NCBI GenBank assembly: GCA_947629935.1
Contig: CANRFQ010000003.1
Span: 10,986 to 74,985 of the forward strand
DNA: 64,000 nt
Reading direction: 5' to 3'
Source of the DNA: an uncultured Bacilli bacterium
GTDB lineage: Bacteria; Bacillota_I; Bacilli_A; RF39; UBA660
In this document: in pieces, positions 6,476 to 45,239 of the stretch
How positions within the stretch are numbered: the stretch's first letter is position 1
How the letters are laid out: each line of letters starts with the position of its first letter
Program-made: the position numbers and the translations under genes
The notes under the pieces: model-generated
What the model was told of the DNA's origin: nothing
Database searches by the model: none
The model's input: the letters and a program-made list of their open reading frames with translations, nothing else

Positions 6476-8632
6476 ATGCCAGAAGAAAACACTTTGATAA
6501 AATACGAAGACTTAATTAAAAAGATTAAAAAATATATAAAAGATGAAGAAGAACTTAAAAATATTGAAAAGGCTTATCAATTTGCTTTAGAAAAACATAA
6601 AGGCAAAAAAAGAATTTCGGGAGAAGATTTTATTAATCACCCTTTATGTGTAACCGATATTTTAGTTTCTTTAAATGTTGATAGTGTGACCATTATTTCG
6701 TCTCTATTACATGAAGTAATCAATCATGGTAATACCACAAAAGAAGAGATTGAAGAAGAATTTGGCACCGAAGTAGCTAATATCGTCAATACCATTAGTA
6801 AAATTAATAAATTAACTTTAAATGATGATAGTGAGTCATCAGCGATTTATTTAAGAAAAGTATTAGTAGGTCTTGCCGAAGATGTGCGTGTGTTGTTTAT
6901 TAAATTAGCTGATCGTCTTCATAACATGCGCACGATATGGGCTTTATCATCAGAAGATCAAAAATTAAAAATTAGAGAAACAGAAACTGTTTTAATTCCT
7001 ATTGCTCATCGTTTAGGAATTAACTCTTTAAAAAGTGAGCTTGAAAATTTATGCTTGAAATATTCGCGTCCTGATATCTATCAAGATGTTTTGGATAAGT
7101 TAAATGATTCTATCGAAGACTTAAATTCTTATCTATTAGAAATGAAAGAAAGTATTTCGGACATATTAACTGAACACGGAATTAAGTTTGAAATTAAAGG
7201 ACGGGTTAAAAGCGTCCATAGTATATATAAAAAATTAGCAAAAGGTAAAAAGTTTAGTGATATCCATGATATTTTAGCTTTAAGAGTATTTGTGGAAAAA
7301 GAAAGTGACTGTTATTTAGTAGTAGGCTTAATTCATGCTAAATATCGTCCGGTTCCAGGACGCTTTAAAGATTATATCGCCATGCCCAAAGAAAATATGT
7401 ATCAAAGTTTACATACGACGGTTTTTGGTCGTAATGGCTATCACTTTGAAGTTCAAATAAGAACATATGAAATGGATGAAATAGCCGAAAAAGGTATGGC
7501 TGCTCATTGGACGTATAAAGAAAAAGGAACAGTTAAAATTCAAAAAATTATGGAACAAAAATTGGAAATGTTCCGTAACTTAATTGAATCAACTAATGCT
7601 TCTAGTGATACGGAATTTGAAGCTAAAGTTAATACTGAATTTTTATCACCAATGATATATGTCTTTACACCAAAAGGGGATGTGGTAGAATTACCAATTG
7701 ACGCTACACCCGTAGATTTTGCTTATCGAATTCACTCTGAGGTCGGAGATAAAATGGTCGGCGCCTTAGTTAATGAAAAAATAGTGCCTTTAAATTACGC
7801 TTTACAAGATGGGGATATTGTTAAAATTAATACCAATAATGCCTCAACGCCTTCTTTAGAATGGTTAAATTTTGTCAAAACAACACAAGCCAAAAATAAA
7901 ATTAAATCATTTTTTTCCAAACAAGATCGTTTAAATTATATAACTAAAGGAAAAAATTTATTAGAAAAAGAAATAAGAAAGAAAAAGTTAGCTATTAGTG
8001 AGATTTTAAGTGATGAAAACATTAATAAAATCTTAACTGACTTAAAATTAAAAGATTTAGAAGATTTATATCTAGCTATTGGTTCACTGCGCTTTACACC
8101 AACGTATATTATTAATTTAATTAATCAAGATCGTAAAAGTGTTTCAGATGCTTTATTAGATAAAGTTTTACCAAAAACTTATAACACTAAAAATGATTAT
8201 AAAGGCGATATAATTGTTTCTGGTACTAATGATATAAAAGTAACTATTGCTAAATGTTGTAAACCGGTTTTTGGTGATGAGATAGTTGGTTATGTAACAA
8301 GGGGAGAAGGAGTATCTGTTCATCGTAAAAATTGTAAAAATATTAAGGATAATAAACGTTTAATTGCCGTTTCTTGGAATGAAGTAACCGATAAAACCTA
8401 TTTAACGGATTTAAAAATTGAAAGTTTACCAAATAAAAATGCTTTATTAGAAATTATTACTAAAGCTTCTTTACGAAATGTTTATGTTGAAACAATTAAA
8501 AATAATGATTATGACACGCATTCGCTTTTTGAACTAACTTTAAAAATAAAACAAAAAGAAGATTTGGATAAGTTTATTACGGATTTAGAAATATTGCCTT
8601 ATATTAAAGAAGTGACAAGGATTAGCCGATGA
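6476..8632 (+). CDS. relA: Bifunctional (p)ppGpp synthetase/hydrolase Rel (RelA/SpoT family)
   Basis: HD hydrolase domain, RelA_SpoT synthetase domain (..YRPVPGRFKDYIAMPKENMYQSLHTTV..), TGS and C-terminal ACT-like region; 718 aa. RBS GAAGGTGAGGA. Confidence 0.9.
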   Translation: MPEENTLIKYEDLIKKIKKYIKDEEELKNIEKAYQFALEKHKGKKRISGEDFINHPLCVTDILVSLNVDSVTIISSLLHEVINHGNTTKEEIEEEFGTEVANIVNTISKINKLTLNDDSESSAIYLRKVLVGLAEDVRVLFIKLADRLHNMRTIWALSSEDQKLKIRETETVLIPIAHRLGINSLKSELENLCLKYSRPDIYQDVLDKLNDSIEDLNSYLLEMKESISDILTEHGIKFEIKGRVKSVHSIYKKLAKGKKFSDIHDILALRVFVEKESDCYLVVGLIHAKYRPVPGRFKDYIAMPKENMYQSLHTTVFGRNGYHFEVQIRTYEMDEIAEKGMAAHWTYKEKGTVKIQKIMEQKLEMFRNLIESTNASSDTEFEAKVNTEFLSPMIYVFTPKGDVVELPIDATPVDFAYRIHSEVGDKMVGALVNEKIVPLNYALQDGDIVKINTNNASTPSLEWLNFVKTTQAKNKIKSFFSKQDRLNYITKGKNLLEKEIRKKKLAISEILSDENINKILTDLKLKDLEDLYLAIGSLRFTPTYIINLINQDRKSVSDALLDKVLPKTYNTKNDYKGDIIVSGTNDIKVTIAKCCKPVFGDEIVGYVTRGEGVSVHRKNCKNIKDNKRLIAVSWNEVTDKTYLTDLKIESLPNKNALLEIITKASLRNVYVETIKNNDYDTHSLFELTLKIKQKEDLDKFITDLEILPYIKEVTRISR

Positions 8633-34736: not shown

Positions 34737-35051
34737 TCAAGTATTTATTTGCAAAATTTGGGAAATATGCAATTTTATTTGGTTATTTAGCGTAATTATT
34801 TTTATGCTAGGTTTAATTTCAGTTATTATTCCCCTAATTTTATATATTTGATTACTTTTAAAATAACAAATAACAATTTTAACTTGATTATAATAACTTT
34901 CTAAAATTAATTCATTCAATTTTTCGAGTTGGTCGCTAGATAGGATAGGTTTATTAACTTCATTTTTCTTTTTTAAGATAGAATTTACAACTTCTTTAGA
35001 CGAAATTAAGGATTCAAAAGGTTGCCATTTTATCATTCCCCGATCATTCAC
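34737..35051 (-). CDS. YolD-like protein (UmuD functional analog; partner of the Y-family polymerase)
   Basis: MIKWQPFESL is the YolD-family hallmark. It overlaps the upstream polymerase gene by ATGA, the same arrangement as B. subtilis yqjW-yqjX and uvrX-yolD. Confidence 0.5.
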   Translation of the reverse strand: MNDRGMIKWQPFESLISSKEVVNSILKKKNEVNKPILSSDQLEKLNELILESYYNQVKIVICYFKSNQIYKIRGIITEIKPSIKIITLNNQIKLHISQILQINT

Positions 35052-36301
35052 TGTTCATGACCTCCTATTTTTTGATTACGAGAAATAGCCGTAGAATCTT
35101 CTAATAAAGCGGTGGCTTTTAAGATACTATTTTTCCCAAATTTATTTTTAATATCATCAATAGTCTTATTATAGTTGTCTTCGGTATGAATATGATTTAT
35201 AGTTTCAAATATATTTAGTTGAATAGCTTTTTTTTCACTAAGCCTAGAAAAACAAAGAGTAACTTTTCGAATAGGCATATTCTCGTAATATTTATCAAAT
35301 AAAAGATAAAGAGTTTTTAAAATTAATTTTATATCATCGGTAGGATTGTCGAGTTTAGTTACATGGTAAAATCCACCTCCCACATTTTTTGAATAGCCTA
35401 TGCCTAAACCAATACAACTAGTCAGCTTTTTTTCTCGTCTTAATCTTTGCATTAAAACATCAGTCATTTCTGAAATGATTAAACGAATGTTATGGCCATT
35501 ATAATCTTTAAATAAAACTTGACTATGACTCATTGATTTATCTTTAGCAATATGTTTATAATCTTTTATTCGGCTGAAATCAATGCCATTAGCATGATTC
35601 CATAATTCTTCGCCCATGATACCAAATTTATCTTTTAATTTATTTTGGGGATAGTGAGCCAGATCGTAAATAGAAAAAATATTTAAAGCATTTAATCTTT
35701 TTTCCATTCGGCTTCCAATGCCCCAAACTTTAGATAAAGGACTAAGGGGCCACAGTTTCATTGGAATATCTGCATAAGTCCATTTAGCAATACCATTTTT
35801 ATATTTTTTGGCTTCAGTATCCATGGCAATCTTAGCTAAAAGAAGATTAGGTCCAATACCACAAGTAGCTGTAAGACCCGTTCTTTTATAAATATCTTGT
35901 AAGATAGTTTCAGCTAATTGATAATCAGTCATTTTATATAGTTGTAAGTAGTCCGTAACATCCAAAAAAACTTCATCAATAGAGTAAATGTGCATATCAT
36001 CAGCAGCTACATAATCCAAATAAATACCAACTACTTCTTTACTTTTTTTTAAATATAAGCTCATCCGAGGAGGGACAATAGTATATTGAATGTTTTTGGG
36101 AATTTCATATAAACGGCCGCGTGATTTTAAACCTTTACTTTTAAGATAAGGAGTAATAGCTAAAGTAATTGCCCCGTTTCCTTGTTTAGTACTTGCTACT
36201 ACTAGAGGGAAAGAAAAAGGATCTAAATGTCTTTCCACACATTCACACGATGCAAAAAAGCTTTTAAGATCAATACATAAAATATTCCTTTCTTCCATCA
36301 T
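35048..36301 (-). CDS. Y-family (UmuC/DinB-like; UvrX/YqjW-type) error-prone DNA polymerase
   Basis: ILCIDLKSFFASCECV is the IMS/UmuC N-terminal signature; …YSIDEVFLDVT…; 417 aa. RBS GGGGTGA. Confidence 0.8.
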   Translation of the reverse strand: MMEERNILCIDLKSFFASCECVERHLDPFSFPLVVASTKQGNGAITLAITPYLKSKGLKSRGRLYEIPKNIQYTIVPPRMSLYLKKSKEVVGIYLDYVAADDMHIYSIDEVFLDVTDYLQLYKMTDYQLAETILQDIYKRTGLTATCGIGPNLLLAKIAMDTEAKKYKNGIAKWTYADIPMKLWPLSPLSKVWGIGSRMEKRLNALNIFSIYDLAHYPQNKLKDKFGIMGEELWNHANGIDFSRIKDYKHIAKDKSMSHSQVLFKDYNGHNIRLIISEMTDVLMQRLRREKKLTSCIGLGIGYSKNVGGGFYHVTKLDNPTDDIKLILKTLYLLFDKYYENMPIRKVTLCFSRLSEKKAIQLNIFETINHIHTEDNYNKTIDDIKNKFGKNSILKATALLEDSTAISRNQKIGGHEQ

Positions 36302-36446
36302 ATCACCCCAAACATTTGTTCTAAGACTATTATAGTATATTTTAGAAAAAAGGCAACTGGAAAAATTTACAATTTTCCTTGCTATTTTAATAATATTTAG
36401 TATAATAAATTTTACAATGAATTTCTATTGAGGAAAATGATATCTA

Positions 36447-38792
36447 ATGAATTACAATAATTTATATCCTGAAACTTTACCGGAACCGTTGAATGATAGT
36501 CAATTAAAAGATTATTTTCTAAAATATAAAAATGGCGATTTAAAAGCCAGAAACGAAATTATAAAACATAATCTTCGTTTTGTTATTCATATAGTCGAAA
36601 AACGCTTTAAAAATATTGATCTTGACAAAGAAGAGTTAGTTAGTATTGGAACTGTAGGTTTAATAAAAGCCGTTGATACATATGATGTTTTAAAAAACAT
36701 AAAATTTGCTACCTATGCTGGACGCTGTATAGAAAATGAAATTCTCATGTTTTTGAGAGTAAATAATAAACATTTAAACAATATTAGCTTAGAAGAACCA
36801 TTAGGTGATAACGATAAGCTTACATTGGCAGATACGTTGGAAGATAAACAAATTAATATAGAACTCGATTATGAGGCTAAAGATGAATTAAATTATTATC
36901 AAAAAATCCTTTCGAAAGCTTTATCTTTATTAGATTCAAGAGAAAGGCAAATAATAAATTATTACTATTATCATAAAATGACGCAAAGCCAAATAGCAGA
37001 CAAATTAAATTTATCTCAATCCTATTTGAGTCGAATAAAAAAAAATGTAATAAAAAAATTAAAGAAGATAATAGAAGCAAAAAATATAAATATTGCTGAT
37101 TTTTCAAAACTGGAGATTAAAGAAGGAGGAATTAAACAAATGAGTAAAATACGTTCAATAGAAAAATTTTTCCCCAATAATACCATAGAAGAACTTTTAA
37201 TAGCAAGCAATAAATTATCAGCCAAAGAAAAAGAAATTTTATATTTATATTATGGATTAAATGGTAAACAAGAGCAAACGACAGAAACCATTGCTAAGCA
37301 ATATGGATATACAAAATCATCAATCACAACTAGTGTAATTCCGCGTATCAGAGAAAAGCTAAAAAAAATATTAACTAATCCCAATTTAATTGAAGAAGGT
37401 AAGAACACAGGTGTAAGATTAAAAGGTTTAAAGCAATTTTTCCCTGATCAAAGTTTAGATGATATATTAACTGCGAGCAATAAATTATCAGCCAAAGAAA
37501 AAGAAATTTTTGATTTATATTATGGATTAAATGGAAAACAACAGCAAACGGCAGAAACTATTGCTAAGCAATGTGGATATACAAAATCATCAATACAAAC
37601 TGGTGTAATTCCGCGTATTAGGAAAGAGTTAAGGGAAATATTAGCTAATCCTAATTTAAATGAAACAAGTGTAAGATTAAAAGGTTTAAAACAATTTTTC
37701 CCTGATCAAAGTTTAGATGATATATTAACTGCGAGCAATAAATTATCAGCCAAAGAAAAAGAAATTTTTGATTTATATTATGGATTAAATGGAAAACAAG
37801 AGCAAACGACAGAAACTATTGCTAAGCAATATGGATATTTAAAATCTACATTACAAACTAGTGTAATTAAGCGTATTAGGAAAAAGTTAAGAAAAATGTT
37901 AGTTAACCCTAATTTAAATGAAGAAGGTAAGAAAACAAGTTTGAGATTAAACAGTTTAAAAAAATTTTTCCCTAATAATACCATAGAAGAACTTTTAATA
38001 GCAAGCAATAAATTATCAGCCAAAGAAAAAGAAATTTTTGATTTATATTATGGATTAAATGGAAAACAAGAGCAAACGGCAGAAACTATTGCTAAGCAAT
38101 ATGAATATGCAAAATCTACATTACAAACTAGTGTAATTCCGCGTATTAGGAAAGAGTTAAAGAAAATATTAGAGACTGCTCACACTCAAAAGATTAGTTA
38201 TGAAAATATTCAAAAAGCTATCCAAGAAATAGAAAAACAAATTTACAATAATACCTTTGATGAAAACAACTTATCATATAAAATTGGTGATGAAACAATT
38301 TATGTTGATATTATCGATACTAAATGTTCTTTAGCTTTTAAATCTAGCAAAACAGGTTTATTAGATAGAATTCATGCCCAAAAGAAAAAATGTTTAGTTT
38401 ATAAGATATATTTAAGTCAACCACATGATAATATTCAAGATAAATATATTATTAAAGATAAGAAAACCAATAAATGTTATAAATATGTTTATCTGTATGA
38501 AGATGGCAATTTTGATTTAACTGGCGTTTTAAATGAATTAGTTTGTTTTAAAATGGAAAATATTAAAATTGAAACACTCCCATCTTTAAATAATAATTAT
38601 AATGCCCAAAAGACACAAGAATATATAAAACGAAAAAAACTAATTGAAGAACAAAAGGCAGAAGAAAAACAATATCAAATAAATTTAGAAGAAGCAATTG
38701 ACCTACTTAAAAATCAAAATTATTCTGAGGCTATTAAAAAATTAGAAGCTAGTTTAAAGTCTACTAATCCTACAAACTTTAGCCTCAGTTAA
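36447..38792 (+). CDS. Sporulation-type group-3 sigma factor (SigE/SigK-like sigma2-sigma4 core, about 235 aa, with no pro-sequence) fused to four tandem additional sigma-region-4-like HTH domains, plus a C-terminal domain of about 200 aa with no recognised family
   Basis: The N-terminal core (KARNEIIKHNLRFVIHIVEKRF…LVSIGTVGLIKAVDTYD…KFATYAGRCIENEILMFLR, then LSQSYLSRIKKNVIKKLKKI) closely matches B. subtilis SigK/SigE. After that come four repeats of about 95 aa (…ASNKLSAKEKEIFDLYYGLNGKQEQTxETIAKQYGYxKSxxQTSVIPRIRKxLxK…) that align to the SigE region 4.2 sequence ([50 protein letters not shown]). The single ORF is 781 aa. Confidence 0.7.
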   Translation: MNYNNLYPETLPEPLNDSQLKDYFLKYKNGDLKARNEIIKHNLRFVIHIVEKRFKNIDLDKEELVSIGTVGLIKAVDTYDVLKNIKFATYAGRCIENEILMFLRVNNKHLNNISLEEPLGDNDKLTLADTLEDKQINIELDYEAKDELNYYQKILSKALSLLDSRERQIINYYYYHKMTQSQIADKLNLSQSYLSRIKKNVIKKLKKIIEAKNINIADFSKLEIKEGGIKQMSKIRSIEKFFPNNTIEELLIASNKLSAKEKEILYLYYGLNGKQEQTTETIAKQYGYTKSSITTSVIPRIREKLKKILTNPNLIEEGKNTGVRLKGLKQFFPDQSLDDILTASNKLSAKEKEIFDLYYGLNGKQQQTAETIAKQCGYTKSSIQTGVIPRIRKELREILANPNLNETSVRLKGLKQFFPDQSLDDILTASNKLSAKEKEIFDLYYGLNGKQEQTTETIAKQYGYLKSTLQTSVIKRIRKKLRKMLVNPNLNEEGKKTSLRLNSLKKFFPNNTIEELLIASNKLSAKEKEIFDLYYGLNGKQEQTAETIAKQYEYAKSTLQTSVIPRIRKELKKILETAHTQKISYENIQKAIQEIEKQIYNNTFDENNLSYKIGDETIYVDIIDTKCSLAFKSSKTGLLDRIHAQKKKCLVYKIYLSQPHDNIQDKYIIKDKKTNKCYKYVYLYEDGNFDLTGVLNELVCFKMENIKIETLPSLNNNYNAQKTQEYIKRKKLIEEQKAEEKQYQINLEEAIDLLKNQNYSEAIKKLEASLKSTNPTNFSLS
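37150..38190 (+). repeat. Four divergent tandem repeats of about 260-285 bp, in an A-B-B'-A' pattern, encoding the extra sigma4-like domains
   Basis: Units 1 and 4 share FFPNNTIEELLIASNKL; units 2 and 3 share FFPDQSLDDILTASNKL. The copies differ by scattered substitutions, so this is not an assembly duplication. Confidence 0.75.
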
Positions 38793-38913
38793 TCAACATT
38801 TAGGAGCAGTATATTTTAAAGCAGGGAAGGAACTGTTAGCTTTAAAATATTACCAAGAAAGTCTAAAATATAATGCCAAAAACTATTATTCTTATCTAGG
38901 CATAGGTCAATCT

Positions 38914-41331
38914 TTGCTAGCTATGAAATATTATGATGATGTTTTAACTTACTTTCAAAAATGTGAGGATTTGCGAACTTCGCATTTGAGTCATTACTTT
39001 GCAATGGCGGAATATTATAAACAAAAACAAGAATATTCTCAAGCTCTTCAACAATTAGATAAAGTATTAAAAAAATATGATGATAATTCTCGAGCATATC
39101 ATACAAAAGCTCAGATCTTAATGGAAATAGGCCAATATGAAATGGCAGAAGAAACAATAAAACAAGCATTAAAATACTATGATTATTGTAGTAATAGCTA
39201 TAGTTGGGTTCTTTTAGGAAAAATTTATTATTTAACTAATAGCAAAGAACAAGCATTTCAAATTTTTGATGATATAGCAGCTAAGCAATTACAATCGGAG
39301 TTATATGAAATAGGAGGTTTCTTTCATCATTTAGGACTTAAGGGCTTAGCTTATAAATATTATTTACAAGCTAATACATTTTATGGTAGAAGTAAAATGA
39401 ATAAAGCTGATGTAGAACATCATATTAGAAAGCATACGGTCTATAATAATGAAAAAATGCATTCATTATTTAATTGTTCTATAAATTTAGCAACCTTAGA
39501 AGAATTAATAAAAGATAGTGACAAAATAGGAATTCAAAATGGCACGGATATTTATCAATTTAAATGTCCTAACATTGGGACATTATATGTTGATGAAAAT
39601 GATAAAAGAACTGTCCATTATTTAACTATATTCACTTTACCATTTACAAAAAGAATAATAACAGCTTATCCTGATTATAAACTATTAACTAATCAAGAAC
39701 TTCCCCAAATAAGTGTTGATCAGATAAATAAAATATATGAGCGTAGCCTTGAACCAAAAATATCTTCTAAAATATGTGACATAGAAGAAAAAACAGAAGA
39801 TTCTTCTAAAATATGTGACATAGAAGAAAAAATAGAATATTCTTCTAAATTATGTGACATAGAAGAAAAAATAGCCCATGATGTTGAATATGCTATTAAA
39901 TTGTTTGAACAACGCGATTTTAAAACAGCGGAAAAGATATTGCAAAAATGTTTAATATCGCAAAGTGCTCAAACCTTTAGAAAAGTAAATTATTATTTAG
40001 GCTTAATTTATACTAAACAAAAAAAATATTTAACAGCTATCAAATATTTTCAAGATAGTTTAAAACAGAAAACGACGTACGGAGTTTTATGTGCTTTAGG
40101 TTATGCCTATATGATGGAAGAAAATTACGAAGAAGCCATTCAGTGTTTTAAAGAGTGCAATAATTTTGATGATCCTAGAAATTGGCATTTAATTAACTTA
40201 GGTATTTGTTATAAAAAAGAGCAAAATTTTGAGAAAGCTTTGGCTATTTTTGATAAAATTATTAGTCAAAATCCTAATAATTGGCTAATTTATTATAATA
40301 AAGCCTTACTATTATATGAATTGCAAAAATATGATGATGCCTTAAATGAAATAAGTGTAATAAAGAAATTAAAACATAAAGCATTAGTTCTTAAAACGTT
40401 ATTAGGAAAAATATATTATATGACTAATAAAAAAACAGAAGCGCTTTCTTTGTTTGAAGAAATAGTTCAAAGTGATCTTAAACATAATAAAATTTTCAAT
40501 ATAAAGGCTATTGGTAATTTCTTTCATGAGTTAGGCTTGCCAGAATTAGCTTATAAATATTATTTAAAAATTTCAATTTTTGAGAAATGGATACACCTGA
40601 AACCAAAAGAAGTAAATGCTCATTTTCAAAAACATTTTTCAGTGCCAAATAACCCGGCTATGCATTCAGTTTTCAATACAAAAATAAGTCTAGAATTATT
40701 AAATTATTTAATTAAAGATGAAAATAAAGTGGCTATTCGAGATTATTATGATGTATATCAAATAAAATGTCTTAATATTGGGAAATTATATATTACAAAA
40801 GATGATATTAAAAATGAAGATTACATCACAATTTTAACAGCACCATTTAGTAAAAATATCATGTTAGCTTATTCCGATTATAAAGTTTATTCCGATGTTA
40901 CAATTCCAATATATACTTTAGAACAAATTGAAAAATTATCTGCCCAATTCCCAGAAAAAGTAACAGAGCCAACTCAAGAAAATAAAACTCAAGAAGTGTA
41001 TGAAGGAGAACTATTAGATAATAGTGAAAACATTAACTTAATAAATCAAATTCCAGTCGCTGATGAAATAGAAATGGAATCATATCGTCAACAAATTAAA
41101 ATGTTTATTAACGTTTTACCAGACCCACAAGAACAAACCGTATTATTATTAAGTTTAGGATATATCCAAAATAAATATTTTAGTCTAAAAGAAATCAGCC
41201 AATTCTTTAATATGGAACAGATAGAAGTTAATAATATCTTTAATAGTGCTTTAAAGAATGTGGAAAATATGGCAAAGACATCTTTAAAAGGAGTAATGAG
41301 GGTCAAAAGCTTGTTAACTCCAAATAACTAA
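38914..41331 (+). CDS. TPR-repeat protein (805 aa) with a large internal duplication, a short 13-aa triple repeat, and a C-terminal sigma4/LuxR-like helix-turn-helix
   Basis: TPR-like YY…A…F motifs throughout. The N-terminal and C-terminal halves are paralogous (…FFHHLGLKGLAYKYYLQA… vs …FFHELGLPELAYKYYLKI…). (SSKICDIEEKxEx) occurs three times. The C-terminus INVLPDPQEQTVLLLSLGYIQNKYFSLKEISQFFNMEQIEVNNIFNSALKNV resembles a sigma-70 region 4 HTH. Confidence 0.55.
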   Translation: MLAMKYYDDVLTYFQKCEDLRTSHLSHYFAMAEYYKQKQEYSQALQQLDKVLKKYDDNSRAYHTKAQILMEIGQYEMAEETIKQALKYYDYCSNSYSWVLLGKIYYLTNSKEQAFQIFDDIAAKQLQSELYEIGGFFHHLGLKGLAYKYYLQANTFYGRSKMNKADVEHHIRKHTVYNNEKMHSLFNCSINLATLEELIKDSDKIGIQNGTDIYQFKCPNIGTLYVDENDKRTVHYLTIFTLPFTKRIITAYPDYKLLTNQELPQISVDQINKIYERSLEPKISSKICDIEEKTEDSSKICDIEEKIEYSSKLCDIEEKIAHDVEYAIKLFEQRDFKTAEKILQKCLISQSAQTFRKVNYYLGLIYTKQKKYLTAIKYFQDSLKQKTTYGVLCALGYAYMMEENYEEAIQCFKECNNFDDPRNWHLINLGICYKKEQNFEKALAIFDKIISQNPNNWLIYYNKALLLYELQKYDDALNEISVIKKLKHKALVLKTLLGKIYYMTNKKTEALSLFEEIVQSDLKHNKIFNIKAIGNFFHELGLPELAYKYYLKISIFEKWIHLKPKEVNAHFQKHFSVPNNPAMHSVFNTKISLELLNYLIKDENKVAIRDYYDVYQIKCLNIGKLYITKDDIKNEDYITILTAPFSKNIMLAYSDYKVYSDVTIPIYTLEQIEKLSAQFPEKVTEPTQENKTQEVYEGELLDNSENINLINQIPVADEIEMESYRQQIKMFINVLPDPQEQTVLLLSLGYIQNKYFSLKEISQFFNMEQIEVNNIFNSALKNVENMAKTSLKGVMRVKSLLTPNN

Positions 41332-41358
41332 TACAACTTATTGTAAATTAGTGTCAAC

Positions 41359-41395
41359 AAGTATAAGTATAACGCAATACTTATACTTTTTTTTG
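41359..41395 (+). terminator. Rho-independent terminator (perfect 12-bp stem plus T8)
   Basis: aagtataagtat-aacgca-atacttatactt followed by tttttttt. Confidence 0.75.
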
Positions 41396-41420
41396 ATAAG
41401 ATTAAGGTGGAGGAAAAATT

Positions 41421-42443
41421 ATGAAGTGTGTAAAATTAGTTGGAAAAAGAAAATTTGAAATTGGCGAAATAGAGGAGCCCCAAGCGCAAGATGGATATGT
41501 TTTAATTGATGTTAAAAAAGCCGGAATTTGTGGTTCGGATATTCACTACTGGGATATTGGGGAACCAAAAGGGCTAGTACTAGGTCATGAGTATTGTGGT
41601 ATTGTGACAAATACTGGTGGTAAAGAAGGTTTGCAAGTAGGGGATAGAGTAACAGCTCTACCTATATCGCCCTGTTTAAAATGTAGTGCTTGTAAAACGG
41701 GCAATATTCAATATTGTAAAGAGACTTGGACAAATGCCACCGGGTTATCTTTAACAAATTCGGGAGCATTAGCCCCAAAAATGGCTATAAGAGAAGATAT
41801 GGTTATCAAAGTTCCAGATAATATAAGTGATGAAGAAGTAGCAATGGTTGAACCAACAGCCGTAGGCTTACATGGAATTCATTTAGCAGATATTAAAGTG
41901 GGTCAGAAAGTATTAGTAATTGGGGGAGGAATAATTGGCCTTGTTTCAGCAATGTTTGCTAAAATGGAAGGTGCTAGTTTAGTTGTTGTTAGTGAAACAA
42001 ACGAAAAACGTGGTCAAAATGCCGTTGATTTAAAAGTCGCAGATAAATGGTATGACGCTAAAAGTGATTTAAGTGCTAAAATAACCGAAGATACTTTAGA
42101 AGGATTTGATGTGGTTATCGAATGTTGTGGTAATGAAAAGGCGGTAACAAGTGCAATTTTAGCTACTAAACCGGGAGGTACTTGTGTGCTAGTTGGAGTT
42201 TCTATGTTACCAATTACTATTCCAACTGTATCCGTTGTTATGAGTGAACTTACGGTCAAAGGCGCAATAGCTTATACGAAAGAAGAATTTGAGACTTGTA
42301 TTGAACTGATGGCGAATAACCAAATAGATGTTAAAAAATTTATTTCTGATATAGTTACCTTAGAAGATGTTCAAGCTTCTTATGAAAGATTAACTAATGG
42401 TAACGATGATGCCATCAAAATAATTGTAGATCCCAATAAATAA
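41421..42443 (+). CDS. Zn-dependent medium-chain dehydrogenase (threonine/sorbitol/alcohol dehydrogenase family)
   Basis: GICGSDIHYW…GHEYCGIV (catalytic Zn site), a structural-Zn Cys cluster (CLKCSACKTG), and a Rossmann motif VLVIGGGIIG. Confidence 0.7.
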   Translation: MKCVKLVGKRKFEIGEIEEPQAQDGYVLIDVKKAGICGSDIHYWDIGEPKGLVLGHEYCGIVTNTGGKEGLQVGDRVTALPISPCLKCSACKTGNIQYCKETWTNATGLSLTNSGALAPKMAIREDMVIKVPDNISDEEVAMVEPTAVGLHGIHLADIKVGQKVLVIGGGIIGLVSAMFAKMEGASLVVVSETNEKRGQNAVDLKVADKWYDAKSDLSAKITEDTLEGFDVVIECCGNEKAVTSAILATKPGGTCVLVGVSMLPITIPTVSVVMSELTVKGAIAYTKEEFETCIELMANNQIDVKKFISDIVTLEDVQASYERLTNGNDDAIKIIVDPNK

Positions 42444-43934: not shown

Positions 43935-44456
43935 ATAGCAAATAAAAACGATTTACCAATTAACGAAAATATTACAGTTGCAGAGCTAATGGTAATTGGT
44001 CCCAATGGAGAACAAATGGGAACCAAAAAATTAGAGGATGCTTTAACTTTAGCAAACTATGCGGGTTTAGATTTAGTCTTAATGAGTGGTAATAGCGAGA
44101 GAGCCGTGGGTAAAATAATGGACTATAATAAATATCGTTATGAAAAGCAAAAGAAAGTTAAAGAACAACAAAAGAAACAAAGAGAAAGTAATAAAGAAGT
44201 AAAAGAATATCGTTTTACAATCGCTACAGATGTTCACGATTTTGAAACTCGGAAGAAAAACGCAATTGAATATTTAAAAAAGGGTCATAAAATAAAGGCA
44301 TCTTTAAGATTTAAAGGACGCCAAATGGCTCATCCAGAACTTGGTAAAGAAATGTTATTAAAATTTGCTGAAAGTTTAGCAGAATATGCGGATATTGATC
44401 AAAAACCAAAACAAGAAGGTAAAAACATGTTCATGCTACTTGCACCTAAAAAATAG
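43935..44456 (+). CDS. infC: Translation initiation factor IF-3, initiating at a non-canonical AUA codon (the track ORF begins at the internal ATG at 43989)
   Basis: The in-frame upstream translation IANKNDLPINENITVAELMVIGPNGEQMG matches the conserved IF-3 N-terminus (…INE.IRA.EVRLI..NGEQLG). GGAGGTG lies 7 nt before the ATA, and there is no ATG/GTG/TTG in frame. Atypical starts (AUU/AUA) are a known infC hallmark. Confidence 0.75.
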   Translation: MANKNDLPINENITVAELMVIGPNGEQMGTKKLEDALTLANYAGLDLVLMSGNSERAVGKIMDYNKYRYEKQKKVKEQQKKQRESNKEVKEYRFTIATDVHDFETRKKNAIEYLKKGHKIKASLRFKGRQMAHPELGKEMLLKFAESLAEYADIDQKPKQEGKNMFMLLAPKK

Positions 44457-44684: not shown

Positions 44685-45239
44685 ATGACAAGAGTTAAAG
44701 GTGGAACTGTTTCTAAAAACAGAAGAAGAAAAGTTTTAAAACAAGCAAAAGGTTATTTTGGTAGTAAACATAGATTATATAAAACTGCCCAAGAACAACT
44801 ATTCCATAGTGGAGCTTATGCTTATCGTGATCGTAAAGCAAATAAAAGAAACTTCCGCAAATTATGGATTACACGTATTAATGCGGCATGCCGTACCAAT
44901 GAAATTAGTTATTCTAAATTCATAAACGGTTTAAACATTGCGGGTGTTACTATAAATCGTAAAATGTTAGCCGAAGTTGCTATTGATAGTCCCGAAAGTT
45001 TTACAAATTTAGTAGCTATTGCTAAAGATGCTCTAAAATCTGGTAAAACTGTTAAAGAAGTTAAAAATGAAGAAAAAACGGAAGCTAAACCTGTAGCTAA
45101 AAAAGAAGCTTCTGGTAAAGATGCCAAAAAAGATTATAGTAAAATGACTTTAACTGAACTTAAAGCTATTGCTAAAGAACAGGGTATTAAAGGTTATTCA
45201 ACGATGAAAAAAGATGAATTAATTAATAATTTAAAATAA
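44685..45239 (+). CDS. rplT: 50S ribosomal protein L20 with a C-terminal extension of about 65 aa containing a Rho_N-like motif
   Basis: Residues 1-119 match L20 ([29 protein letters not shown]…[11 protein letters not shown]…). The extra tail …[31 protein letters not shown] matches the Rho N-terminal domain pattern (L.EL..LA.E.GI.G.S.M.K.ELI). Confidence 0.8.

Follow-up and report, generated by a model that had tools for sequence, protein, structure and literature searches.

An 805-codon open reading frame (ORF; 38914-41331, plus strand, TTG start) follows a sigma factor ORF (36447-38792, 781 aa) on a contig of an uncultured Bacilli bacterium, of which we analyzed a stretch of 64,000 nucleotides, hereafter the window. 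This arrangement raises the question of whether the two ORFs are neighboring genes of one regulatory system or pieces of a single gene. An earlier note on this DNA had taken the former view and described the 805-aa product as a protein of tetratricopeptide repeats (TPRs) with a C-terminal helix-turn-helix (HTH), encoded by a gene of its own adjoining that of the sigma factor. We found that positions 36447-41331 are one gene of ~1,627 codons, in which a 1-nt insertion at 38774-38776, inside the first TPR, gives rise to the 781-aa and 805-aa ORFs. What the 805-aa ORF represents is thus the 3′ portion of a giant sigma factor gene that is frameshifted, not a gene in its own right, and the supposed boundary lies inside a repeat and is created by the inserted base. 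The explanation that best accounts for the evidence, and that we consider probable, is a single frameshifted giant gene whose product is a sigma factor with a built-in regulatory or sensor extension. The features of the locus are collected in Table 1.

The first line of evidence comes from the junction itself. The 781-aa ORF finishes in TPR-like sequence (...NYSEAIKKLEASLKSTNPTNFSLS*) at a stop codon in 38790-38792. The frame of the 805-aa ORF is open already from 38758, so that it overlaps the end and the stop of the upstream ORF, and from there to 38913 it reads ...ASVNQHLGAVYFKAGKELLALKYYQESLKYNAKNYYSYLGIGQSLLAMKYYDD. The 121 nt of "intergenic" DNA thus code for TPR in the downstream frame, and the 52 "intergenic" codons alone score as such (TPR_1, E 6.6e-4). 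When the junction peptide is repaired by deleting one base, it matches TPR_2 with 38.4 bits (cutoff 27) and TPR_12 with 31.3 bits (cutoff 30.1), one stretch running across the lesion. No Shine-Dalgarno sequence was found ahead of TTG 38914 or of ATG 38923; the neighboring genes carry AGGAG-, GGTGG- or AAGGAGG-type sites. Because the frame is open from 38758, the stretch up to 38913 scores as TPR and neither possible start has a Shine-Dalgarno sequence, the start of the 805-aa ORF is an artefact. No terminator-like site was found in 36250-41500, the space between the two ORFs included. A promoter scan was uninformative at 27% GC (52 sites vs 36.5 +/- 6.2 expected).

The second line of evidence comes from relatives. 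Proteins P0001 (1,134 aa) and P0002 (1,107 aa), 78-80% identical to the window's product, are continuous through the junction (...KLEASLKSTNSTTLNLINRHLGTAYLK...). In the DNA alignment the window reads cctacAAActtt where the relatives read tctac-Tacttt, with exactly one 1-nt gap, and the extra base at 38774-38776 is the sole indel with respect to loci L001 and L006 in the ~200 nt aligned over the junction. The family is very rare, has no name in any source and is confined to metagenome-assembled genomes (MAGs) of uncultured low-GC gut bacteria of the Bacilli type: a search of the repaired 1,627-aa protein against 5.8 billion proteins returned five relatives only, and strong matches (E<=1e-30) amounted to about 15 of 1.84 billion protein representatives, of which those looked up were all unnamed. 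Its members share a conserved domain order, namely a group-3 sigma core, 1-10 tandem region-4-like HTH repeats, a domain that we call X, a TPR array, a module that we call Y, an acidic linker and an acidic region-4-like tail. In distant homologs (29-53% identical) everything is found in one protein of 1,150-2,070 aa. At least nine lineages have this single polypeptide, with the same order in P0003 (2,067 aa, 29% identity), L008 (1,363 aa), L009/P0014 (1,285 aa), and P0006, P0008-P0011 and P0015 (1,156-1,706 aa). The distant single-ORF homologs carry one Y module.

Table 1. Features of the split giant sigma factor gene and its upstream region (window coordinates; amino acid positions from 38914 on refer to the 805-aa ORF).
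Position	Strand	Feature	Remark
36379..36406	+	SigmaA-type promoter-like site TTGCTA-N16-TATAAT upstream of the gene	Block conserved in close relatives
36447..37139	+	Group-3 sigma core with region 2 (aa 39-107) and canonical region 4 (aa 158-207)	SigE/SigK-like, below equivalog cutoffs
37123..37142	+	Internal AAGGAGG-N10-ATG (ATG 37140, Met232), in frame with the sigma core	Equivalent ATG starts the "big protein" gene where it is separate (L001/L002)
37155..38183	+	Array of four sigma region-4-like repeats in tandem, each of about 88 aa	Net charge +20
38193..38582	+	Domain X, about 130 aa, with KKC-x-VY and VC-[YF] motifs	Conserved family-wide
38685..38771	+	First TPR of the array (LEEAIDLLKNQNYSEAIKKLEASLKSTNP)	Still in the frame of the upstream ORF
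38758..38913	+	"Intergenic" stretch in the downstream frame, open, TPR (ASVNQHLGAVYFKAGKELLALKYYQESLKYNAKN...)	Continuous with the relatives' proteins
38772..38777	+	Frameshift site ACAAAC	One extra base within 38774-38776 vs L001/L006
38914..39318	+	Rest of TPR array A (aa 1-135)	
39319..39741	+	First copy of the Y module, made of capping helices (FFHHLG...) and an alpha+beta core (aa 160-276)	H-x3-H, MHS-x-FN, D-x-YQ and IITAYPDY motifs
39759..39879	+	39-nt x 3 tandem repeat, inter-unit linker	Encodes SSK[IL]CDIEEKxxx
39880..40569	+	TPR array B (aa 323-552)	Paralog of array A
40591..40944	+	Y module, copy 2 (aa 560-677)	His motifs retained; last-strand motif degenerate, IMLAYSDY, with Leu for Thr and Ser for Pro
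40945..41073	+	Acidic linker (aa 678-720; 11 Asp/Glu and 2 Lys/Arg in 43 aa)	Much longer in some homologs, e.g. L008
41074..41331	+	C-terminal sigma region-4-like tail (HTH core aa about 734-788) and stop codon	

Is the extra base a real mutation? A variant of our explanation, differing from it only on the reality of the lesion, holds that the gene is intact in the organism and that the base is a sequencing or assembly error. We regard this as possible, if somewhat unlikely. It would fit with a difference of one base, with a ratio of nonsynonymous to synonymous substitution rates (dN/dS) of about 0.3 and with the fact that all 805 downstream codons are still open in AT-rich DNA. However, the run that contains the extra base is no long homopolymer but just three A, at least ten neighboring genes equal their L001 orthologs in length to within three residues, and the close relative L006 has a different frame disruption in the helix of its sigma region 4. 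In that locus (about 2395-2475), the closest relative with three repeats, 2 nt are deleted from the recognition helix with respect to the window and L001, which cuts the sigma factor to 216 aa; were the 2 nt present, sigma factor and partner would share one frame, as they do in the window. This is a second, independent disruption, which hints that lesions accumulate at the locus. If real and recent, the frameshift would probably inactivate the sensor part. Three further observations agree with either possibility: 805 fully open downstream codons in DNA of 28% GC fit a sequencing error and a very recent mutation alike, an exact-sequence look-up of the 781-aa ORF found nothing on record elsewhere, and the sole contig of the same strain, L010 (identical ADH gene), ends 481 aa before the stop, short of the junction. 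In comparisons with relatives dN/dS is 0.27-0.32 downstream of the lesion and 0.19-0.38 upstream of it, from which it follows that both parts evolved as coding sequence.

Some lineages do encode the sigma factor and the rest of the protein separately. In L001 and L002 a sigma gene of 236-238 aa overlaps the gene of the big protein by 22 nt, and the latter has its own AAAGGAG-N8-ATG. L018 has a 355-aa sigma gene, one TAG, 63 nt and a ribosome-binding site before the gene of P0013; in L019 the partner, P0016, is found by itself after a gene unrelated to it and has a ribosome-binding site of its own. In all these natural splits, as in the stand-alone partner of L019, the second protein starts with a region-4 repeat, and no boundary falls within the TPRs. 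For this reason the break in the window, within the TPR array, must be a lesion and not a gene boundary. The split loci have further peculiarities at the joint. A heptamer A_AAA_AAA in the sigma frame directly precedes the ATG of the partner in L001 (about 7975-8005) and L002 (about 2420-2450), where a -1 slip would fuse both proteins (...KELKK-MQKKRS...), and it could be due to chance in such AT-rich DNA. In L018 (1105-1173) the single in-frame TAG is the only stop in the 63-nt spacer, and read-through would recreate the fusion.

The natural splits are also an argument for the arrangement proposed in the earlier note, that is, two genuine adjacent genes, a multi-region-4 sigma factor ending at 38792 and an independent 805-aa TPR/region-4 partner (anti-sigma factor, co-regulator or decoy) from 38914. 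The two parts are separate in L001/L002 and L018 and unlinked in L019, so the extension can work in trans, and the 805-aa ORF is itself intact. Nevertheless, the boundary falls inside a TPR and results from a single 1-nt indel with respect to relatives, the "intergenic" DNA is TPR in the downstream frame, the proposed start has no Shine-Dalgarno sequence and all natural splits occur before a region-4 repeat, about 1.6 kb upstream. The two-gene arrangement is thus largely refuted, and we consider it very unlikely. Least likely of all is that programmed frameshifting or phase variation at 38772-38777 yields either a short sigma-repeat-X product or the full-length protein: two products are conceivable, the frame differs between relatives at this locus, and the L001/L002 heptamer is in the correct frame for a -1 shift at the sigma/partner overlap (a separate site), but ACA AAC TTT AGC lacks any slippery motif that would allow a +1 shift, conservation of the site is absent, relatives being in frame there, and runs of 3 nt are too short for a slipped-strand mechanism.

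With the single frameshifted gene as the preferred model, part of the note's partnership proposal survives. Sigma factor and TPR/tail module co-occur in every lineage but L019, where the partner is alone, and they are adjacent genes in L001/L002 and L018. The fact that they are fused in at least nine lineages ties them together functionally and agrees with a regulatory system that is self-contained; what does not hold is two separate genes with a boundary at 38792/38914. The lesson for annotation is that one base can make a single giant gene resemble a two-gene regulatory system. As to the kind of partnership, the 1,627-aa reconstruction has no ZAS-type anti-sigma motif, with neither HxxxCxxC nor CxxC anywhere in it. 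It also has no transmembrane segments, which implies a cytoplasmic location.

What does the giant protein consist of? Its upstream part holds a complete sigma core. Sigma70_r2 matched the 781-aa ORF with 43.9 bits (cutoff 24) and Sigma70_r4 with 104 bits in five stretches, the canonical region 4 plus four repeats (Pfam), so that regions 2 and 4 are both present, and the NCBIfam model TIGR02937 gave 156.5 bits vs 42.9. The top NCBIfam models were those of SigE (NF006158, 243.4 bits, cutoff 339) and SigK (NF004471, 231.9 bits, cutoff 252). Since the scores stay under every equivalog and subfamily cutoff, we do not assign the protein to these sporulation sigma factors. The likeness to SigE/SigK, and to SigF/SigG, of Firmicutes concerns the N-terminal 210-260 aa, for which these are the best models (SigE/SigK in the window, SigF/G/B-type in L008, L009 and P0010). 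However, the window's protein aligns only from model position 26-35, so the N-terminal pro-sequence is apparently absent, and the giant C-terminal extension has no counterpart in SigE/SigK.

The core is followed by the region-4-like array, which at the DNA level is a 270-nt x 3.6 tandem repeat (37206-38172). The number of copies is four in the window, three in L006 and one in L001/L002. Both this array and the 13-aa linker repeat described below expanded recently in the lineage of the window. A literature search on tandem region-4 arrays or giant sigma factors gave no match among the papers it covered. Domain X, which comes next, had no Pfam match and 0 hits in a PDB sequence-profile search. 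P0003 (L005 1597-7800) has two complete sigma cores, the N-terminal one SigE/K-like and the second at about aa 400-630 with regions 2, 3 and 4, together with about ten region-4-like repeats. P0004 (1,056 aa) and P0005 (1,426 aa) consist nearly entirely of 9-15 tandem region-4-like units, without TPR or Y; the former has an N-terminal sigma core and the latter lacks one, so region-4 arrays also exist outside the TPR-Y family. In L009 (10851-13056) two sigma paralogs of 352 and 363 aa come directly after the giant sigma gene, each with a short C-terminal extension that resembles what comes after the sigma core in the giant protein. L009 is labelled Muribaculaceae in its record, but its gene content looks Firmicutes-like, and mis-binning is possible.

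The downstream part was correctly recognized in the note as a protein of TPR-like repeats with paralogous halves. TPR_2 (89 bits, seven stretches), TPR_19 (83 bits) and TPR_1 (69 bits) all score above their Pfam gathering cutoffs in the 805-aa ORF. The pairs of strings quoted as evidence for the duplication (FFHHLGLKGLAYKYYL / FFHELGLPELAYKYYL and PFTKRIITAYPDYKLL / PFSKNIMLAYSDYKVY) are present, and aa 1-282 align with aa 320-688 at 36% identity over 286 aa (BLASTP, E 8e-58). The TPR-Y unit is therefore duplicated in the lineage of the window. The two units are joined by the 13-aa triple repeat also described in the note, which we confirmed as a 39-nt x 3.0 tandem repeat (39759-39874, 93% matches). 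Its supposedly conserved Cys is not conserved, as relatives have a single copy of the unit, rather than three, with Trp in place of Cys (PSKLWEIEEK). TPR arrays joined to transcription factors are known from the RNPP regulators (Rap/NprR/PlcR/PrgX), which likewise couple a DNA-binding or transcription module to an array able to bind a peptide signal. The similarity of our protein to RNPP_C is weak (17.6 bits vs a cutoff of 26.5, E 0.0028), it carries a full sigma factor instead of an XRE-type HTH, and both domain order and size differ, so we do not count it among them.

At its C-terminus the protein ends in the segment that the note had described as shaped like a sigma region 4 or LuxR HTH and had taken for a DNA-binding module. 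Pfam profiles did not detect it: Sigma70_r4 on the isolated tail remained below threshold (13.7 bits vs 24.1, E 0.045) and GerE had no hit. The relationship to region 4 emerges at the level of profiles. A four-sequence tail profile matched a 16-sequence profile of the family's region-4 units with 93.8% probability and E 1.7e-7 (hhalign), and in a comparison with PDB about 25 of 30 hits, including the best one (E 1.4e-3), were region 4 of primary sigma factors. Moreover, the HMM (hidden Markov model) of the region-4 repeats matches the tails of 11 family members (E 2e-5 to 1e-2) and NCBIfam RpoD_Cterm the tail with E 5.6e-4. Judged by these profile matches, the tail is a divergent region-4 domain. 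It is found at the C-terminus of most full-length giant-family members; a tail-specific HMM missed that of P0015. The part of the claim concerning DNA did not hold up as well. The net charge of the HTH core is -2 in the window and -4 in P0003, whereas a repeat has +5 and the canonical region 4 has +8, and in an RpoD alignment the residues equivalent to sigma-70 R584/R586/R588 are Q/E/N, as seen by sequence inspection. The tail therefore has no basic recognition helix able to contact a -35 element. Given the acidic core, the exchanged Arg positions and the acidic linker, DNA binding by the tail appears doubtful, and a role as a protein-interaction domain or mimic seems more plausible.

In both paralogous halves, what is not TPR is the Y module. 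Neither copy in the window matched any Pfam family at E<=10, and the Y profile had 0 hits in a PDB sequence-profile search. With a 7-sequence profile we obtained 48 proteins at E<=1e-3 among the 1.84 billion representatives. About 15 of these are members of the giant sigma family, and the others are short TPR proteins (120-590 aa) that end in the Y core, which indicates that TPR-Y is an autonomous unit. One stand-alone TPR-Y protein, P0039 (587 aa, L014 5001-6764), has an added HD phosphohydrolase domain, and its gene lies beside two others, one response-regulator-HD and one histidine-kinase-like, a setting that hints at a connection with nucleotide or RNA signalling. An AlphaFold2 model of Y from a 42-sequence alignment (predicted local distance difference test, pLDDT, 93.9; predicted template-modelling score, pTM, 0.87) has a helix with H-x3-H, a strand with (M)HS/HG-x-F, long beta-hairpins and a last strand with IIT-x-YP. 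When the model was compared with PDB using Foldseek, the only hits with a probability >0.2 were chains 5e3e_B/D, the CdiA-CT toxin of Yersinia kristensenii (E 2.8e-3, prob 0.94, 22-23% identity over 110 columns, template-modelling (TM) score 0.35). This toxin is a ribonuclease of the RNase A superfamily with a functional His175 (with His170) on helix 1 and Thr276/Tyr278 in 'GYKIITGYPTP' (PMC5435912, PMC7297114). Toxin His170/His175 and 'KIITGYP' correspond to 'HHIRKH' and 'TKRIITAYPDY' in the first Y copy.

Y appears to resemble CdiA-CT(Ykris), as well as RNase A-like and EndoU toxins (PF18431, PF14436; PDB 5e3e), in having paired N-proximal His residues on the first helix and a K-I-I-T-x-Y-P last strand, the one that holds the catalytic Thr/Tyr in the toxin. 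It differs from CdiA-CT in the spacing of these His residues (H-x3-H vs H-x4-H in the toxin) and in its setting, being internal to a cytoplasmic sigma protein that has no secreted-toxin tip and no immunity gene. Further observations weaken the assignment. A TM-score of 0.35 and an E of 2.8e-3 make it weak to begin with, and against a 16-sequence alignment of the CdiA-CT family the Y profile matched the last strand only, with a probability of 4% (hhalign); because of this last result we downgraded a ribonuclease assignment to a lead. In Pfam, the 42 aligned Y members had nothing but scattered weak hits, among which PF18431 is not listed and EndoU_bacteria appears in 1/42 (E 0.0087). In addition, the Thr of the IIT motif is missing from the second Y copy of the window and from most giant-family members, and the H-x3-H...H arrangement could equally be a metal site. 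With no significant family-profile match, we do not place Y in PF18431 or PF14436. Based on the model, an RNase A/EndoU-like fold for Y is a lead that could as well prove wrong as right, and a three-His metal site, suggested by the conserved residues, may be an alternative. Should the fold be confirmed, Y would represent a cytoplasmic use, in a housekeeping context, of a fold otherwise known from toxins.

From its domain content we infer that the giant protein most likely functions as a sigma factor whose extension is an on-board sensor and regulator. The group-3 sigma core would bind RNA polymerase. The TPR-Y unit would perceive the signal, by TPR-mediated binding of a protein or peptide and through the pocket of Y, which, with its putative RNase A/EndoU-like alpha+beta fold and three conserved His residues, could serve to bind or cut RNA or a nucleotide, or to hold a metal. 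The acidic region-4-like domain at the end of the protein, carried on a flexible acidic tether, might act in cis or in trans as a region-4 mimic that does not bind DNA, and might gate the true region 4 or the basic repeat array (net charge +20). The split versions found in some lineages show that the extension can act in trans.

Sigma factors with on-board regulatory domains are a known kind, and it is the architecture found here that is unusual. In the extracytoplasmic function (ECF) groups ECF41 (SnoaL-like), ECF42 (TPR) and ECF238/CorE (Cys-rich), as in the giant family, a regulatory domain on the sigma factor's own polypeptide replaces a separate anti-sigma factor, and in ECF42 the C-terminal TPR extension is essential for activity (PMC8999054). 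However, the core in the window is group-3-like (SigE/K/F/G-like) and not ECF, and the extension measures about 200 aa in ECF42 as opposed to 900-1,800 aa in the giant family and about 1,400 aa in the window. For none of the ECF extensions have tandem region-4 repeats, a domain X, a Y module or an acidic region-4-like tail been described. The protein does not belong to ECF42, given its group-3-like core and the repeats and domain X that separate its TPRs from region 4; the likeness is one of logic only.

Sigma factors normally have 20-70 kDa and one copy each of regions 2 and 4, and they are usually controlled by separate anti-sigma factors. Members of the giant family, in turn, are proteins of 130-240 kDa with a sigma core, up to about ten extra region-4 modules, a TPR array, X, Y and an acidic region-4 look-alike, and annotation pipelines at present do not see the family. 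Should the sigma core be gated by the extension, the principle of a sigma factor with an on-board sensor would spread from ECF to group-3 factors, in a far more elaborate form. A more specific proposal, which we offer as speculation and consider unlikely, is that the family is a new class of single-polypeptide signal-transduction sigma factors, whose core would be wired to a spare region-4 array and to an RNase A/EndoU-like Y; it would directly read the status of RNA or nucleotides, or else a region-4-targeting protein of phage or host, with the acidic mimic and the basic array serving as built-in decoy and gate. If true, no earlier sigma factor would combine multiple region-4 modules with a sensor or effector of ribonuclease fold on board.

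A conflict system, in which Y is an active ribonuclease toxin, the tail and the region-4-like repeats serve to bait those anti-sigma proteins of phages that are directed at region 4, and activation through TPR/Y leads to abortive infection, seems to us quite improbable. The nearest structural neighbor of Y is indeed a polymorphic-toxin ribonuclease, the repeat copy number is hypervariable, and sigma-like proteins occur in defence systems, MzaA being a generic hit here. Yet PADLOC models match nothing past that generic sigma (MzaA) and TPR similarity, the toxin-fold assignment is weak and the complete sigma core argues for RNA polymerase binding and promoter recognition. The genomic context does not help this proposal either, as there is no immunity-like neighbor and no defence island or mobile context, and the neighbors are housekeeping genes that differ from lineage to lineage.

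No conserved partner, immunity gene or mobile context was found among the neighbors of the family loci, which differ in every lineage and include glmS, tsaE/D, typA, parAB, ftsEX and rpsB. Loci L001-L004 and L006 are syntenic with the window; they come from MAGs of the rabbit gut that bear the label 'uncultured Bacilli bacterium'. The gene order they share with it is yolD-dinB, sigma, big protein, ADH, ... infC-rpmI-rplT. Several of these flanking genes have features of their own. Between the divergent dinB (35048-36301, minus strand) and the sigma gene lies a Cheo/LexA-like box, AAACATTTGTTC (about 36305-36320), which is conserved in L001, L002 and L006 and suggests that the neighboring yolD-dinB Y-family polymerase is under SOS control. 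The rplT genes (L20) of the window (44685-45239, plus strand) and of L001 (14665-15249) encode 184-194 aa with a C-terminal extension that is Rho_N (Pfam) in relatives, in what seems to be an unusual fusion. Finally, the infC ORF of the window (IF3; 43989-44456, plus strand) is listed as starting at an ATG and encoding 155 aa. The usual start of IF3 genes is a rare codon (AUU/AUA) farther upstream, so the true start is probably upstream of the listed one.

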